64,000 bases of DNA from an uncultured Candidatus Binatia bacterium (GCA_964432595.1 CAYSOF010000011.1:47757-111756), one strand, 5' to 3'; shown: positions 19,727 through 25,196, counted from the first letter of the stretch. Made by a program: numbers and translations. Notes: generated by a model from the sequence alone, not told the origin.

Positions 19727-22456
19727 ATGTCGCCCTCCCTCGTGCGCGGCGGTGCGCTCGCGGTCGTCCTGGCGACGCTCGCGCTGACCGCGCTCGTCGC
19801 GAGCGACGTGCGCCGGTCCGTCGGCCGGCCGACGCCCGGGTTCCCGGTCTTCGCGAACGGCGTCGTGTCGCTGCCCATGCTGGCGCCGGTGGCGGCGCCG
19901 CCGGCGGTACGCGCGCTGCGGCCGCACGATCGCGTCGTCGCCGTCGACGGGCGCGCGCTGCACGGCGCCGCGGACGCGTGGCGCGCCGCCGACGAGGCCG
20001 GCGTCGGCGCGACGCTCCGATGGACGTTCGCGCGCCCCGGCGGCGCGCCGTTCGACCTGGCGCTGCCCGTCGTGCCGTTCTCCGACGCCGACGTCGAGCG
20101 CCTCTACCTGCCGTCGCTGGTCATCGGCCTGCTGCTCCTCGGCGTCGGCGCGATTCCGGTCCTCGTCCGTCCCGACCTGGCGACGTCGCGCATCGCGTTC
20201 GTCTTCATGACGGGCGCGAGCGCGGGCTTCTTCCTGCTCGTCCTCGACTACTTCCTCGGGCAGCGCTTCACCGTCTGGCTCCGGCTCCCGGGCATGCTGG
20301 CGATGGCGGCGCTGATCCATCTCGGCCTCGTCTTTCCCGAGCGGCGCGGCCCGCTCGCGCGCGGCGATCGCACGCCGGCACTGATCCTCTACGGCGGCGC
20401 CGCCCTCCTCTGGGCCGTGCACGGCATCCTGTTCGCGCGCGCCCCGCGCTGGACGATGCCGATCGACCTGCTGGAGCTCGGCGGCTACGCGACCGGCTTC
20501 CTCCTCCTCATGGCGAACCTGATCCGCACGGCGCGCCATTCGCCCGACGCGGTCCGCCGCCGGCAGGCGTGGGTCGTGCTGCCGAGCCCGCTCCTCGCCG
20601 CCGTCGGCATGCTCGTCTTGTTCGCGAGCAACTGGGACCTCGTGCCCGTGCGGTCGCCGTTCGCGGTCTACCTGTTCCCGGTGATGCTGGTGGGCCTCTC
20701 GTTGGCCTACGCGACGCTCAAGCACAACGTCTTCGAGATCGACGACGTCGTGCGCCGCGCACTGACGCTCGCGATCCAGGGGCTCGCGCCGGTGGCCGCC
20801 TACCTGGCGCTGTTCTCCGTCGCCCTGCCGTGGCTCGGCGGCGACACGACCTGGGTGGCCGCCGCCGGCGCCGTGCTGCTGCTGGTCGTCCTGGTGCCGG
20901 CGGTCGCGCTGCTGCCCGCCCGCGTCGAGCGCATCGTCGAGAACACGCTCTATCCGCGCCGCCGCGCCGCGCGCGCGGTCGTCCACGCCGCCAGCCGCGA
21001 GCTGCCGCGCGCACGCGACGAGGCGACGGTCGTCGCGGTCCTCCGCGCCGCCGTCCGCGACGGCGTCGACGCCGCCGGCCTGCGGGTCGTCGCCGGCGGA
21101 GCCGACGAGCCGCTCCGCGAGCGCGGCGCCGTCGAGGGCGAGCCCCTGGTGCTGACGCCGGCCGATCCGCTCTCCGTGGCGCTCCGTCGCGGCCAGCTCG
21201 TACAGCCTGCCGGCGGGCGCACAACGCAGAAGCCCGCGCCGTCGCGCGCCGCGATCCACCGCGCGAGCGAGCTCGGCATCGCGCTCGCCGTCCCGCTGCC
21301 GATGGGCGCCGGCCAGAGCGGCGCGCTGCTCCTCGGTCCGCGCCGCGACGGCCGCCTCTACACGAGCGACGACCACCTGCAGATCGAGACGCTCGCCGGT
21401 CAGGCGGCCACGGCGCTCGAGAACGGCCGCGCGTGGCTCGAGATCCAGGCGCTCGAGCGCCGCCTGCGGGCGGAGAACCTCTACCTGCGGCAGGAGGCGC
21501 AGCCCGCGCCCGACGCGGGCGCCATCGTCGGCGCCAGCCCGGCGATCGGCGCCGTGCTGGCGCAGGTGACGCGCGTCGCGCCCACCGACGCCACGGTCCT
21601 CGTCGAGGGCGAGACGGGCACCGGCAAGGAGCTCGTCGTCCGCGCGCTCCACGCGCAAAGCCGCCGTGCCGAGCGCACGCTGGTCCGCATCGCGTGCGCG
21701 GCGATTCCCGAGACCCTGCTCGAGAGCGAGCTCTTCGGGCACGAGGCCGGCGCGTTCACCGGCGCCGTCGGGCGCAAGATCGGCCGCTTCGAGATCGCCG
21801 ACGGCGGGACTTTGTTCCTCGACGACGTCGACACGATGCCGCTCGTCGTGCAGGCGAAGCTGCTGCGCGCGCTGCAGGAGGGCGAGGTGCAGCGGCTCGG
21901 CGGCACGACGGTGCGCCGCGTGGACGTCCGCGTCGTGGCGGCGACGAACCGCGACCTCCTCGCGGAGGTGCGCGCGGGCCGCTTTCGGGAGGACGTCTAT
22001 TATCGGCTGAACGTCGTGGCGATCCGCCTGCCGCCGCTGCGCGAGCGGCGCGAGGACATCCCGCTCCTCGTCGAGCATTTCGTGCGCCGCGACGGCGCGC
22101 GGCTGCGCCGCGACGTGCACGCCGTCGCGGCGGAGGCGATGACGGCGCTCGCCGCGCACGACTGGCCCGGCAACATCCGCGAGCTGCGCAACGTCGTGCA
22201 GCGCGCGCTGGTCCTCTGCGACGGCGACGTGCTGCGACTTCCCGGGACGCTGGCGCCGGTCGCCGGCGCCGGGCCGGGGGGCCACGACCTCGGGCGCGCC
22301 TCCCTGACCGAGCTGCTCCAGCGCTACAAGGCGCGTCTCGTCGGCGCGGCGATGCGACGCGCGGGCGGCAACCAGCGCGTGGCGGCCGAGCTGCTCGGCA
22401 TCCATCGGCCGAGCCTGACGCGCATGCTGCGCGAGCTCGAGGCCGCGGGCGACTGA
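19727..22456 (+). CDS. membrane-bound sigma-54-dependent transcriptional activator (TM - PDZ-like - 7TM - GAF-like - AAA+ - Fis HTH)
   Basis: Walker [22 protein letters not shown] signature ([15 protein letters not shown]). C-terminal [23 protein letters not shown]. About eight predicted TM helices in the N-terminal 400 aa. Confidence 0.9.
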
Positions 22457-22460
22457 CGCC

Positions 22461-25196
22461 ATGTCGCCCCGTCTCGTGCGCACCGGCGCGATCGCGATCC
22501 TCGTCGTGACGCTGGCGCTCGCCGCCCTCGTGGCGCGCGACGTCGCCGGCCTGGTCGGCCGTCCCTACCCCGGCTTCCCGGTGCTCGCCCACGGCGTCGT
22601 CTCCGTGCCGGTGATGGCGCCGGCGCGCTTCGGCGGACGCGACGCCCGCCTGCGGCCGCCCTACCGGGTGGTCGCGATCGACGGACGTCCGGTGCACGAC
22701 GGCCGCGAGGTGCGCGCCGTCGTCGACGCCGCGGGCCCGGGCGCCGTGCTCACCTACCGCTTCGCCCATCCCGGCGGCGAGACGTTCGAGCTGCCGATCC
22801 CCGTGGCGACGTTCACCGCGGAGGACGTCCGCAGCTTCTATCTACCGATCGTGCTCGGCGGCCTCGTCCTCTTCGTGATCGGCGCGGTCCCCGTCCTGCT
22901 GCGTCCCGATCTCACCGCGGCGCGGCTGCTCTTCGTGTTCAGCACCGCCCTGGAAGCCGGCATCGGCCTGCTCGTCGCCGACTACGTGGTCGCGTACCGC
23001 TTCACGCCGTGGCTGCGCGGCACGAACGCGATCGCCGGCGCGGCGCTCCTGCACCTGGCACTCGCGTTCCCCGAGCGGCGGCCGCCGCTCACCTGGTGGC
23101 CGCGTGCCACGCTCGCGATCGTGTGGGCGGGATCGCTCGTGATCTTCGCCGCCCACGTCGTCGCGTACTTCGGCCGCCCGGCGCTCGGGTTCCCCGTCGA
23201 CGTCGCCCAGATGCTGCAGTTCGTCCTCGGCTTCGTCGTCCTCGGCGCGAACTGCCTCTGGACGGCGCGGACGTCGCCCGATCCCCGGCGCCGGCGCCAG
23301 GCGCTCGTCGTCCTGCCCGGCCCCATCGCCTACGCGATCGCGACGATGGTCCTCGTCGCCGGCGCCTGGAACCTCACCACGCTGCGGTTCACGCTGGCGG
23401 TGCCGCTGCCCGGCGTCGTGATGGGCCTGTCCCTGGCCTACGCGATGCTGCAGCACAACGTCTTCGAGTTCGACGCCGTCGTCCGGCGCGGCCTCGCGCT
23501 CGGCATCCTCGCGGCCGTCGCCGCCGTCGTCTATCTCGGGCTCTTCGTCGCCGTCTCGACGATGCTGGGCCCGGGCGCCGCGTGGGCCGCGAGCGCCGTG
23601 GCCGCGACGCTGCTGCTGCTCGTCGTGCCCATGACCGCGCCGCTGTGGACGCGCGTCGAGGGGCTGGTCGAGCGTGCGCTCTTCCCGGACCAGCGCCGCG
23701 CGCGCCACCTCGTGCACGCCGCCAGCCGGGAGCTGGCGCGGCTCCGCGACGAGGAGACGCTCGCGCGCTTCGTACGCGAGACGGTGGCGCGGAGCCTCGG
23801 CGGCACCCGGGTGTGCATCGTCGCCGGACGTCCCGACATGCCGCTGCGGGAGCTCGGGCCGGTGGATCCGGCGCGGCCGGTCGTCGTCCCCGTCGACGAC
23901 CCGCTGCACGCGGCGCTGCGCGCGGGCCGTACGCGGGAGGACCCGGCGTCGCGCACGCCGCTCGCCGTCGGGCTGCCGCCGCAGCCGGACCTGATCGGCG
24001 GGCTGCTGCTCGAGGCGCGTCCCGACGGACGCCTCTACACGTCGGACGACGCCGTGCTGCTCGAGACGCTCGCCGGCCAGGCCGCCGCCGCGATCGAGAA
24101 CGCGCGCGCGTGGGAGGAGGTGCGCGCGCTCGAGCGCCGGCTGGCGGCCGAGAACACGTACCTCCGCCGCGAGGTCGGGCTCGACGCGGGCGGCGGCGAG
24201 ATCGTCGGCCGCAGCCTCGCGATCCGCGCCGTCCTCGGACAGATCGCGCAAGTGGCGCCCACCGACGTCGGCGTGCTCGTCGAAGGCGAGAGCGGCACGG
24301 GCAAGGAGCTCGTCGTCCGGGCGCTGCACGCCGCCAGCCCGCGAGCGCGCCGGGTGCTGGTCACCGTCGCGTGCGCCGCCGTGCCCGAGACGCTGATCGA
24401 GAGCGAGCTGTTCGGCCACGAGCGCGGCGCGTTCACGGGCGCGACGAGCCGCAAGGAGGGCCGCTTCGAGATCGCCGACGGCGGCACGCTCTTCCTCGAC
24501 GACGTCGACACGCTGCCGCTGGCGATGCAGGCGAAGCTCCTGCGCGCGCTGCAGGAGGGCGAGACGCAGCGCCTCGGCAGCAACGTGCTGCGCCGGGTGG
24601 ACGTCCGCGTGGTGGCGGCGACGAACCGCGATCTCCTCGCCCTGGTGCGTGCCGGACGCTTCCGCGAGGATCTCTACTACCGCCTGAACGTCGTCCCGAT
24701 CCGCGTGCCGCCGCTGCGCGAGCGCCGCGAGGACGTCGGGCTCCTCGCCGAGCACTTCCTGCGGCGCGAGTCCGCGAAGATGGGCCGCGCGGTGACGGCC
24801 GTGGCGCCCGCGGCGCTCGCGGCGCTCGAGGCCTACGACTGGCCCGGCAACGTCCGCGAGCTGCGCAACGTCATCGAGCGCGCCCTCGTCCTCTCCGACG
24901 GTCCGCTCCTCGAGCTGCCCGAACCGCTCGCTCCCGCGGCCACGACGCCGGCGGCGTCCGGTGACGACGAAGACCTCGGCCGCGCGCCGATGCCCGAGCT
25001 CCTGCGCCGCTACAAGCACGCGCTCGTCGCCGAGGCGCTCGCCCGTGCCGGCGGGAACCACCGCGAAGCGGCCGCGCTGCTCGGCATCCATCGCCCGAGC
25101 CTGACGCGCATGCTGCGCGAGCTCGACCTCGGCGACGCGGCGCCGCCGCCCCGCCGCCGTCCGTCGACGACGCGCCGGCAGCGTGCCGACCGGTAA
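22461..25196 (+). CDS. membrane-bound sigma-54-dependent transcriptional activator, paralog of the upstream gene
   Basis: Same architecture and length (911 vs 909 aa). [50 protein letters not shown]. Starts 4 nt after the paralog's stop. Confidence 0.9.

Follow-up and report, generated by a model that had tools for sequence, protein, structure and literature searches.

A tandem pair of transmembrane sigma-54 enhancer-binding proteins and their predicted enhancer

Two adjacent genes in the DNA analyzed here, a 64-kb stretch that we call the window, encode EBP1 and EBP2. As judged by sequence, both are intact enhancer-binding proteins (EBPs) of the one-component transmembrane type that arose by an ancient duplication, and each chain combines a membrane receptor with a complete sigma-54 activator. 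Their layout represents a little-known design that occurs, mostly paired, in uncultured delta-proteobacterial genomes. Our favored explanation, which we hold to be rather probable, is that the two proteins act together at a dyad and promoter located after EBP2.

Divergence of the gene pair

EBP1 (19727..22456, plus strand; 909 aa), an integral-membrane sigma-54 EBP recognized from its ORF, a GC3 of 0.96, and Pfam matches, is followed after a gap of 4 nt by its paralog EBP2 (22461..25196, plus strand; 911 aa), which has the same order of ten transmembrane (TM) helices, PDZ, GAF, AAA+, and HTH. GC3 is 0.95-0.96 across both genes. Thus, the description of the pair in an earlier sequence-only reading, tandem head-to-tail sigma-54 activators of ~910 aa separated by 4 nt, was accurate. 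That reading had also proposed a long co-linear similarity, and this was seen as well. BLASTP aligned 909 residues co-linearly, starting at residue 1, with 56% identity and 67% positives, and the pairwise alignment spans the full length of both proteins, with identities of 68% for TM1, 47% for PDZ, 46% for TM2-10, 54% for the linker plus GAF, 73% for AAA+, and 66% for HTH. Because the similarity is spread over all regions, the AAA+ core is not the only part that the proteins share.

The alignment did not agree with two other claims. The AAA+ and HTH blocks, which had been called identical, are only very similar, and the duplication, which had been called recent, is not. The pair is 58% identical in protein and 69% in nucleotide sequence, and the identity at four-fold degenerate sites is 64%, compared with 48% expected from composition. 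Furthermore, orthologs of EBP2 in other genomes are 63-66% identical to it, while EBP1 is only 57% identical to EBP2. Since these orthologs are closer than EBP1, the split between EBP1 and EBP2 is older than those lineages. An NCBI protein (P0158) is identical to EBP2.

Receptor and activator parts of the proteins

Hydropathy and an AF2 model of EBP1 residues 1-590 (pLDDT 92.2, pTM 0.84) placed ten TM helices in each protein, one ahead of the PDZ domain and nine behind it, and the positive-inside rule agrees with an N-in/C-in topology. The EBP1 features described in this section all lie on the plus strand. TM1 is an N-in signal-anchor helix (about residues 10-28 by hydropathy, 19754..19810; helix 3-31 in the model). 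It is followed by a periplasmic PDZ domain found by family profile search (about residues 29-125, 19811..20101), by TM2-TM8, which form a 7TMR-DISM-like 7TM bundle (about residues 126-331, 20102..20719), and by a TM9-TM10 hairpin with a juxtamembrane helix, assigned by hydropathy and the model (about residues 337-408, 20735..20950). The previously noted ~7 TM helices after the PDZ domain fit the TM2-TM8 core, but two more helices follow, giving ten in total.

When a profile made from 30 family segments was compared with the PDB, it matched the PDZ domains of DegQ (the best, E=1.3e-11), DegP, RseP, and CtpA. Pfam PDZ_2 was present in 11 of 16 family members and PDZ_6 in 8 of 16. EBP1 by itself gave E=0.041 with PDZ_2 and, by phmmer, E=0.006 with the CtpA PDZ domain; for PDZ, GAF, and 7TMR-DISM, EBP1 and EBP2 themselves fall below the Pfam thresholds. 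A near-invariant P-G-F (EBP1 residues 37-39; of 92 sequences, at least 90% carry G38 and F39) is a candidate carboxylate-binding loop in the position of GLGF; it occupies family-profile positions 8-10 and so precedes positions 18-90, where solved PDZ domains aligned.

In both proteins, a seven-helix receptor bundle follows an extracytoplasmic domain. PF07695 had no match in EBP1 at E<=5 and none in either protein at E<=0.1, and the best family member, P0006, reached 27.4 bits over residues 125-326 (TM2-8), where the cut-off is 29. Because even P0006 lies below the cut-off, we regard this as distant kinship to 7TMR-DISM_7TM and not membership. The 7TMR-DISM receptors (PF07695; RetS, LadS, NicD, RgsP) share with the pair an anchor helix, an extracytoplasmic sensor, a 7TM region, and a cytoplasmic output. 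However, they carry DISMED1 or DISMED2, whereas EBP1 and EBP2 have a PDZ domain, two more TM helices after the 7TM bundle, and a sigma-54 activator as output. The histidine kinase and cyclase outputs of 7TMR-DISM proteins also occur in the wider family of the EBP N-module, for which an exhaustive search gave 1184 cluster representatives. Among 52 proteins with this module, the output was GAF-HisKA-HATPase in 23, sigma-54 AAA+ in 22, a cyclase in 4, and a Ser/Thr kinase in 2. The N-module is a signalling receptor that the EBPs have in common with histidine kinases, cyclases, and Ser/Thr kinases.

The activator part of EBP1 begins with a GAF domain (residues 432-545) and a long linker helix (residues 547-589; together 21020..21493). 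GAF was sub-threshold in Pfam and was confirmed by fold, which matches the GAF domains of Nlh2 and NifA. Together with the PDZ profile and the model, this upholds the earlier view that the proteins sit in the membrane and combine a 7TM-type bundle with a GAF domain and with a PDZ domain in the periplasm. The sigma-54 AAA+ core and lid (residues 600-837, 21524..22237; Pfam and motifs) and a Fis-type HTH with its recognition helix (residues 871-903, 22337..22435; Pfam) complete the protein. In EBP2, Pfam placed the AAA+ domain at residues 581-819 (24201-24917, plus strand) and the Fis-type HTH at residues 855-887 (25023-25121, plus strand). Scores for the pair were 227.6 and 226.5 bits with Sigma54_activat (PF00158; cut-off 20.2) and 28.4 and 27.5 bits with HTH_8 (cut-off 22), and AAA_lid_14 was found by Pfam in both.

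Both proteins keep an intact Walker A (GETGTGK in EBP1, GESGTGK in EBP2), HTH_8, and GAFTGA, the loop for contact with sigma-54, suggesting that each is a competent activator. The HTH recognition helix is the same in EBP1 and EBP2 and is conserved throughout the family. In both, Walker B reads LFLDDVD, with DD for DE and thus Asp at the position of the catalytic Glu, a change that may slow ATP hydrolysis. Of 23 EBP sequences matched by motif, 21 have DD, and inspection by eye showed it in most others too; P0017 has DE. The order of GAF, linker helix, AAA+ with GAFTGA, and Fis-type HTH is also that of NifA, NorR, FhlA, and Aquifex Nlh2, and the NCBIfam NorR and NifA models gave 340-369 bits over the GAF-to-HTH part, below their cut-offs. 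However, those proteins are soluble and have cytoplasmic ligands, whereas in EBP1 and EBP2 GAF comes after ~430 residues that hold the periplasmic PDZ domain and all ten TM helices. Furthermore, GAF-containing bacterial EBPs (bEBPs) such as NifA have DE in Walker B, in contrast to the DD seen here. The gene rpoN is absent from the 64-kb window.

Predicted enhancer, promoter, and target genes

A perfect 17-bp dyad, GGTAACGTCGGGTTACC, overlaps the EBP2 stop codon (25192..25208). It is a palindrome of the form GGTAAC-N5-GTTACC and is the sole match with two or fewer mismatches in the window. We predict that it is an enhancer (UAS) and, from its comparative placement, the cognate site for the EBP HTH domains. 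The same dyad is found beside family EBP genes at L001, L002, L004, L011, L013, L014, and L015, and at L006 it sits 2.5 kb downstream of the EBP pair. A first scan, covering 210 kb from 12 loci, gave seven dyads with two or fewer mismatches. Six of the seven were no more than 312 nt from the end of an EBP gene (P about 7e-9), and five of the seven had a sigma-54-like motif at a distance of 65-95 nt (P about 3e-8); the thresholds behind these P values were picked after the data were seen. L014 and L015 contain three perfect dyads, each with its center 82-83 nt upstream of a good -24/-12 promoter. Altogether, the layout of UAS and promoter is repeated at eight loci besides the window.

In the window, a second inverted repeat (25224..25264; 16-nt arms, 88% complementary, 9-nt spacer) lies between the UAS and a sigma-54-like -24/-12 element, CGGCACGGGACTTGGA (25270..25285, plus strand), which is orthologous to GGGCACGCCTCTTGCC in L015 and GGGCATGTCTCTTGCG in L014. 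The alignment with these two loci is base-for-base and takes in the dyad, the promoter, the ATG, and the first ~35 codons. There, the gene encodes an exported protein, as do most predicted targets in relatives. Its counterpart in the window is a 5' remnant, a 45-codon ORF for a small single-TM peptide (25298..25435, plus strand), with MPLPLDPPPRRRPDVAGW where L015 has MRTPLDGPERRRPDLAAW and with a GC3 of 0.91. The remainder of the L014/L015 gene is not in the window. By orthology, the promoter at 25270 originally served a large exported protein gene, now cut to this remnant, and because the target gene is truncated, the promoter may be decaying. At -12 it reads GG (TTGG) where GC (TTGC) is expected, a C-to-G change that leaves its present activity uncertain. 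It begins 70 nt from the UAS center, compared with 79-91 nt at other loci, and relative to L014 and L015, 12 nt are missing between UAS and promoter. The distances observed (70, 79-83, and 91 nt) differ by steps of roughly one helical turn.

We see some chance, well below even, that neither the UAS nor the promoter after EBP2 is active any longer, that the desaturase operon downstream is transcribed independently, and that the EBPs act only elsewhere on the chromosome. The GG at -12, the 12-nt deletion, and the reduction of the orthologous target gene to 45 codons are all consistent with a relic, and the link between EBPs and desaturase is conserved in no other locus examined. However, the dyad is still perfect, the remnant ORF keeps its high GC3, and the deletion is near the ~10.5 bp of one helical turn, which may leave dyad and promoter roughly on one face of the DNA. 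Furthermore, no sigma-70-like promoter or terminator was detected between 25196 and 25470.

If the EBPs do act at this promoter, as we favor, it could today drive only the 45-codon membrane peptide and, by read-through, the desaturase and hydrolase genes. The desaturase, a membrane enzyme of the fatty-acid-desaturase family (25470..26651, plus strand; Pfam FA_desaturase, 81 bits; no NCBIfam name), is the nearest intact gene on the downstream side of the predicted promoter, and an Abhydrolase_10 family gene (26707..28155; Pfam PF20091, 511 bits) lies 55 nt after it on the same strand. The sequence-only reading had offered the desaturase or a cluster at 28258 as targets. The UAS-like palindrome and sigma-54-like promoter between EBP2 and the desaturase are in keeping with the first, but the altered -12 and the orthology of this promoter to that of an exported gene speak against it. 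The 28258 cluster has neither a UAS nor a good -24/-12 site of its own, so read-through is the only route by which it could be reached. On the other side of the pair, an alpha/beta hydrolase gene (18776..19669, plus strand; Pfam Abhydrolase_1, 92 bits) stops 57 nt upstream of EBP1 and is possibly co-transcribed with it.

Pairing and probable joint action

Of 11 informative loci, 8 have another EBP gene directly beside that of the membrane EBP, in tandem in the window, L001, L002, L004, L006, and L010 and head-to-head in L014 and L015; L003, L011, and L013 encode a single protein. Family trees were simple NJ trees without support values. Some members (L001_b, L006_b, L004_b) are N-terminally shortened. 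Short partner EBPs keep only TM9-10 and GAF-AAA-HTH, with L001_b and L006_b holding N-module positions 341-430. Because TM9-10 is all that they retain of the membrane part, docking of the short partners onto a full-length subunit is suggested.

Given the same recognition helix and the usual pairing, EBP1 and EBP2 most likely act jointly on one enhancer. We envision that the PDZ domain recognizes a ligand in the periplasm, with the C-terminus of an exported protein or peptide as the most plausible candidate, and that the 7TM bundle and TM9-10 hairpin would relay this signal across the membrane to GAF and the linker helix. Repression of the AAA+ domain would then be lifted, allowing a ring to assemble while still anchored in the membrane. 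The HTH domains of the ring would bind the dyad, and the ring would then remodel the sigma-54 holoenzyme at the -24/-12 element, which this scheme puts about 90-95 nt downstream. EBP1 and EBP2 would share this enhancer, probably as mixed oligomers, so that two diverged sensors could feed one promoter.

A known pair of this kind is HrpR/HrpS of Pseudomonas syringae, which share about 60% identity and assemble into a hetero-hexamer; as with EBP1 and EBP2, the genes are adjacent paralogs, in this case within one operon. HrpR and HrpS are soluble, are not known to have sensory domains, and answer to HrpV, which controls them in trans. One study (PMC3105312) describes them as strictly co-operative at one sigma-54 promoter. 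HrpR/HrpS is a co-dependent pair, whereas a mixed EBP1-EBP2 assembly is only putative.

Alternatively, the two proteins could be independent receptors, forming separate homo-oligomers that respond to different periplasmic ligands and converge on one shared enhancer, either as antagonists or in the manner of an OR gate, with no mixed complex; we think this doubtful, although it has several points in its favor. The sensors have diverged most (PDZ 47%, TM 46%) while the HTH recognition helix is identical, every catalytic motif is kept in both AAA+ domains, so that neither resembles a dependent partner, and the singly encoded relatives indicate that one protein can suffice. However, the pairing in 8 of 11 loci speaks against independence, and sensor-less short partners with a TM9-10 hairpin are hard to explain without docking on a full-length subunit.

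More tentatively, mixed assembly may point to a signalling class new to description, in which sigma-54 AAA+ activators operate as rings embedded in the membrane, with a periplasmic PDZ/7TM receptor directly gating the motor, mixed hexamers on a membrane-held GGTAAC-N5-GTTACC enhancer, and a family-wide Walker B Glu-to-Asp change adapted to tethered, slow cycling. If so, the co-assembled subunits would be sensor-bearing together with sensor-less (TM9-10-only) or differently tuned. We know of no precedent among bEBPs for a hexameric ring of ten-TM subunits with DNA looped to the membrane. ToxR, CadC, TcpP, and ChiS do carry a DNA-binding domain and a periplasmic sensor on one membrane-integral chain, as EBP1 and EBP2 do, and their target DNA must come to the membrane; in contrast to the pair, they are sigma-70-type, have just one or two TM helices, and are not known to contain an AAA+ motor.

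It is improbable that the membrane form is an inactive precursor from which a PDZ signal releases soluble GAF-AAA+-HTH by cleavage, as in regulated intramembrane proteolysis: although proteolytic signalling cascades use PDZ domains of this HtrA/RseP/Ctp type, N-terminally shortened members occur naturally, and the bEBPs RedR2 and BtdS are silenced through membrane sequestration (PMC10084136), no protease gene is conserved beside the relatives' loci examined, histidine kinases and cyclases that work as intact transmembrane receptors are driven by this N-module too, and the short partners keep two TM helices and so stay membrane-bound. DegS/RseP envelope sensing uses a periplasmic PDZ domain of the same sequence family, but EBP1 and EBP2 have no protease domain, and in the joint, membrane-anchored action that we favor the signal would pass straight to the activator on the same chain.

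Divergence of the two activator genes

The two adjacent sigma-54 enhancer-binding proteins (bEBPs) are encoded on the forward strand at 19727-22456 (EBP1, 909 aa) and 22461-25196 (EBP2, 911 aa), as placed by a GC3-based gene map and an ORF list, with a gap of 4 nt between the genes. Both begin with ATGTCGCCC, and a BLASTP alignment of the two proteins over their full length gave 56% identity. By region, the identity was 47% in the PDZ, 46% in TM2-10, 54% in the linker and GAF, 73% in the AAA+ domain and 66% in the HTH, as expected from the full-length co-linear similarity described in the sequence-only reading and not from one confined to the AAA+ core. 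The recent duplication proposed in the same reading was not borne out. Four-fold degenerate sites were 64% identical, versus 48% expected from composition. In a full-length search, the NCBI protein P0158 proved to be EBP2 itself, while two EBP2 orthologues, P0159 and P0160, were 64% and 63% identical to it by BLASTP (65-66% by global alignment). EBP1, at 57%, is further from EBP2 than these orthologues are, and we conclude that the duplication is old. Upstream of an alpha/beta hydrolase gene and the EBP operon lie two small ORFs, 18042-18427 (127 aa) and 18427-18672 (81 aa), whose stop and start codons overlap; neither gave a significant family match.

Pfam identified Sigma54_activat (~227 bits), AAA_lid_14 and HTH_8 in both proteins, with GAF matching below threshold only. 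Each retains an intact Walker A, GAFTGA and HTH, and from sequence neither EBP1 nor EBP2 looks degenerate. The Walker B motif reads LFLDDVD in both EBP1 (21830-21850) and EBP2 (24510-24530), with Asp in place of the catalytic Glu. Of 23 motif-matched EBP sequences, among which are partner EBPs, 21 share this DD, and inspection by eye showed it in most of the remainder; the exceptions were DEIGE in two distant members and DEVD in the family protein P0017. The recognition helix, LG(I/L/M)HR(P/Q)SL(T/A)RM(L/I)R, is kept family-wide. Judged by sequence-defined features, all of which are present save the Walker B Glu, EBP1 and EBP2 are members of the bEBP family. NCBIfam assigned a specific name neither to the EBPs nor to the downstream genes, and database names for the family proteins are generic.

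A PDZ-7TM sensor module

The N-terminal 430 residues of both proteins matched nothing in Pfam or NCBIfam. By hydropathy, a single helix (about residues 10-28) precedes a polar segment of 97 residues, after which nine helices extend to residue 395, with basic loops on alternating sides in a pattern that fits an N-in/C-in topology. A PDZ-like segment followed by about seven TM helices had been suggested; the PDZ was confirmed, and the helix count had to be revised to one before the polar segment and nine after it. PDZ_2 or PDZ_6 was matched by many family members in Pfam, and a profile of 30 periplasmic segments searched against the PDB retrieved the PDZs of DegQ, DegP, HhoA, RseP homologues and CtpA (best E 1.3e-11). 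Pfam 7TMR-DISM_7TM, whose cut-off is 29 bits, left the window proteins unmatched and scored 27.4 bits in the family protein P0006, over residues 125-326, which correspond to TM2-TM8. EBP1 and EBP2 resemble 7TMR-DISM proteins in fold and layout but are not members of that Pfam family. A single-sequence AF2 model (pLDDT 47) was discarded for one built on an alignment. The architecture is TM1, PDZ, a 7TM bundle distantly like 7TMR-DISM, a TM9-10 hairpin, GAF, linker helix, AAA+ and HTH.

No relatives were returned when the N-terminal 430 residues were used as query in a word-indexed homology search. Since an exhaustive profile (HMM) search found 1184 cluster representatives that contain the module in full (26 at E<1e-30), we attribute the earlier blank to a failure of sensitivity rather than to absence. 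In a sample of 52, the module was joined to GAF-HisKA-HATPase_c (23), GAF-Sigma54_activat-HTH_8 (22), a nucleotide cyclase (4) or a Ser/Thr kinase (2). These varied outputs indicate that it is a general transmembrane sensor, of which the EBP fusion is one branch. Neither the searchable literature nor the family libraries searched gave a description of this PDZ-7TM sensor module; it is defined here, and hundreds of histidine kinases, cyclases and Ser/Thr kinases share it.

Most accounts of sigma-54 activators portray soluble proteins signalled by a separate kinase or a cytoplasmic ligand, and a description of integral-membrane bEBPs was likewise not found in the searchable literature. Here, everything between the periplasmic ligand and promoter opening would reside in one ten-helix membrane protein, raising the questions of how membrane-anchored subunits form an AAA+ ring and how enhancer DNA loops to a membrane-bound motor.

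Recurrent pairing among relatives

Profile scans recovered only three related loci from genomes and four from metagenomes. All relatives came from metagenomes or MAGs labelled delta-proteobacteria. Pairs were present in 8 of 11 informative loci, the window included, and took several forms. L002 and L010 carry two full-length membrane EBPs in tandem; L001 and L006 have a full-length EBP in tandem with a short one that retains only TM9-10, GAF, AAA+ and HTH; and L004 has a tandem of a full-length EBP and one that lacks the N-terminal module. In L014 and L015/L016, an EBP2 orthologue lies head-to-head with a full-length membrane EBP resembling the family protein P0005. Single EBPs occur in L003, L011/L012 and L013. 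The short partners (L001, 7884-9656; L006, 11792-13552) are ~590 aa, with the last two TM helices and GAF-AAA+-HTH, and the gene for each overlaps that of a full-length membrane EBP at the latter's stop codon. On the long-read contig of L002, the second membrane EBP (12691-15420) passes into another frame in mid-AAA+ with the called ORF still open, reflecting an erroneous indel from assembly or else a copy in decay.

In NJ trees the two proteins of L010 (L010_a/b), and those of L002 (L002_a/b), fell in different old clades, while in the tree of the N-terminal module EBP1 and EBP2 were sisters. From these placements, pairs arose or were reshuffled more than once, yet were kept. The closest known analogue of these pairs is HrpR/HrpS (PMC3105312); RedR1/RedR2 (PMC10084136) and, in Azotobacter vinelandii, the activators of the alternative nitrogenases (PMC9542535) are further paralogous bEBPs that interact. 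We infer that EBP1 and EBP2 probably form mixed complexes. Less likely, each would act as a separate homo-oligomeric sensor, the two meeting at one enhancer: both activator parts look sound, which favours this reading, and pairing is the common state among relatives, which speaks against it. Under mixed assembly, the recurrent pairs and the conserved Walker B variant would be natural experiments in mixed-ring AAA+ function.

A predicted enhancer, its promoter and candidate targets

At 25192-25208, overlapping the stop codon of EBP2, is a perfect dyad, GGTAACGTCGGGTTACC. No other match at ≤2 mismatches occurred in the 64-kb window, and a second enhancer there was rejected. In a first scan of 210 kb (the window and related loci), seven dyads were found at ≤2 mismatches, six of them ≤312 nt from an EBP gene end and the seventh 2.5 kb downstream of the EBP pair in L006. 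Five of the seven, including that of L006, had a sigma-54-like -24/-12 motif at a distance of 70-91 nt, as measured from the centre of the dyad. With thresholds set post hoc, co-occurrence by chance had P of ~7e-9 for EBP gene ends and ~3e-8 for the sigma-54-like motif. In L002, L003, L009 and L010, a variant dyad, GGCAAC/GTTGCC, precedes the EBPs.

The strongest evidence for the predicted enhancer-promoter arrangement came from L014 and L015, which hold EBP2 orthologues. In L015, GGTAACGTCGAGTTACC lies 11 nt past the stop codon, and 90 nt on GGGCACGCCTCTTGCC starts, followed by ATG; L014 has two dyad-promoter units, one before each of two large genes. Window positions 25170-25440 align with these regions through dyad, promoter (25270-25285 in the window), ATG and ~35 codons, with 12 nt deleted from the dyad-promoter interval and TTGG rather than the relatives' TTGC as the -12 element. 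Distances from enhancer centre to promoter were 70, 79, 82, 82, 82, 83, 91 and 91 nt, a spacing that suggests conserved helical phasing. Between the window's dyad and promoter, an inverted repeat (25224-25264) has 16-nt arms that are 88% complementary, a 9-nt spacer and no T-run. The partner EBP gene in L014 and L015 has its own dyads and sigma-54-like promoter, hinting at a cascade or positive feedback in which one EBP activates the other; the head-to-head intergenic regions (L014, 9813-10000; L015, 9795-10000) contain dyad-like sites and a sigma-54-like promoter directed towards the partner EBP.

The genes behind the relatives' promoters mostly encode exported products: repeat proteins in L014 and L015 (829 aa, signal-anchored, Cys-rich and Ser/Thr-rich), a DUF5122/Calx-beta protein in L006, and signal-peptide proteins in L003 and L013. 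L011 lacks the canonical unit; its dyad (13159) is preceded by a sigma-54-like site (12984) and a small TM ORF, and followed at 13299 by a beta-lactamase-family gene. A 1083-aa DUF5122 beta-propeller protein, of the same family as the L006 product, is encoded in the window at 44580-47831, with no dyad found nearby.

In the window, the promoter is followed by a 45-codon ORF (25298-25435; single TM, GC3 0.91) that starts MPLPLDPPPRRRPDVAGW, compared with MRTPLDGPERRRPDLAAW in L015. From this alignment we identify it as the 5' remnant of the L014/L015 target gene; tblastn found neither the rest of that gene nor a homologue of it elsewhere in the window. Transcription from the predicted start at ~25296 would leave its mRNA almost leaderless. 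The first intact gene is a fatty-acid-desaturase family gene (25470-26651), followed on the same strand, across short gaps and with no terminator detected, by an Abhydrolase_10 gene (26707-28155) and a TLC-like/HEAT gene (28258-30942). The 894-aa product of the last has a TLC/MFS-like membrane N-terminus and HEAT repeats; its gene overlaps 30929-31855 (two cNMP-binding domains) by 14 nt, and a weakly PI3/PI4-kinase-like ORF (31696-32874) comes after.

The desaturase had been proposed as a target, and the dyad and sigma-54-like promoter do precede it; against this stands the TTGG at -12. No related locus has a desaturase beside the EBPs, which led us to reject a conserved functional link. Provided that the weakened promoter is still active, the desaturase would have come under control by lineage-specific capture. 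The same truncated ORF and altered -12 element would fit a dead local promoter with the real targets elsewhere, which we consider possible but not the likelier case, the dyad itself being perfect. At ~72% G+C a genome-style promoter count is uninformative: the plain consensus TGGCAC-N5-TTGCW gave 123 matches in the window, fewer than the 155 in shuffles. The best matches were tied, TGGCGCGTGCCTTGCA at 56641-56656 (-), with 1 mismatch, and TGGCGCGCGCGTTGCT at 30008-30023. The former is at the 5' end of an amidase-family ORF (54396-56762), with no dyad nearby, and the latter is within the TLC-like/HEAT gene.

A route can be proposed from the observed domain order, a topology consistent with a periplasmic PDZ, the family distribution, the pairing and the conserved dyad-promoter arrangement. 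The PDZ would bind a ligand, the signal would pass via the 7TM bundle and TM9-10 to the GAF and linker, and EBP oligomers would form at the membrane, bind the dyad and activate the sigma-54 holoenzyme. Proteolytic release of a soluble activator seems improbable alongside short partners that retain TM9-10. Signalling within the membrane protein goes beyond a routine paralogue pair, as a single polypeptide would link the periplasm to a sigma-54 promoter by a route open to testing, for which the comparative work supplies a predicted enhancer sequence, promoters and target genes, mostly for exported proteins. Apparently unrelated to the EBP pair is the gene at 1761-3917 (-), whose product is a hybrid histidine kinase (PAS, HisKA, HATPase_c and two receiver domains).
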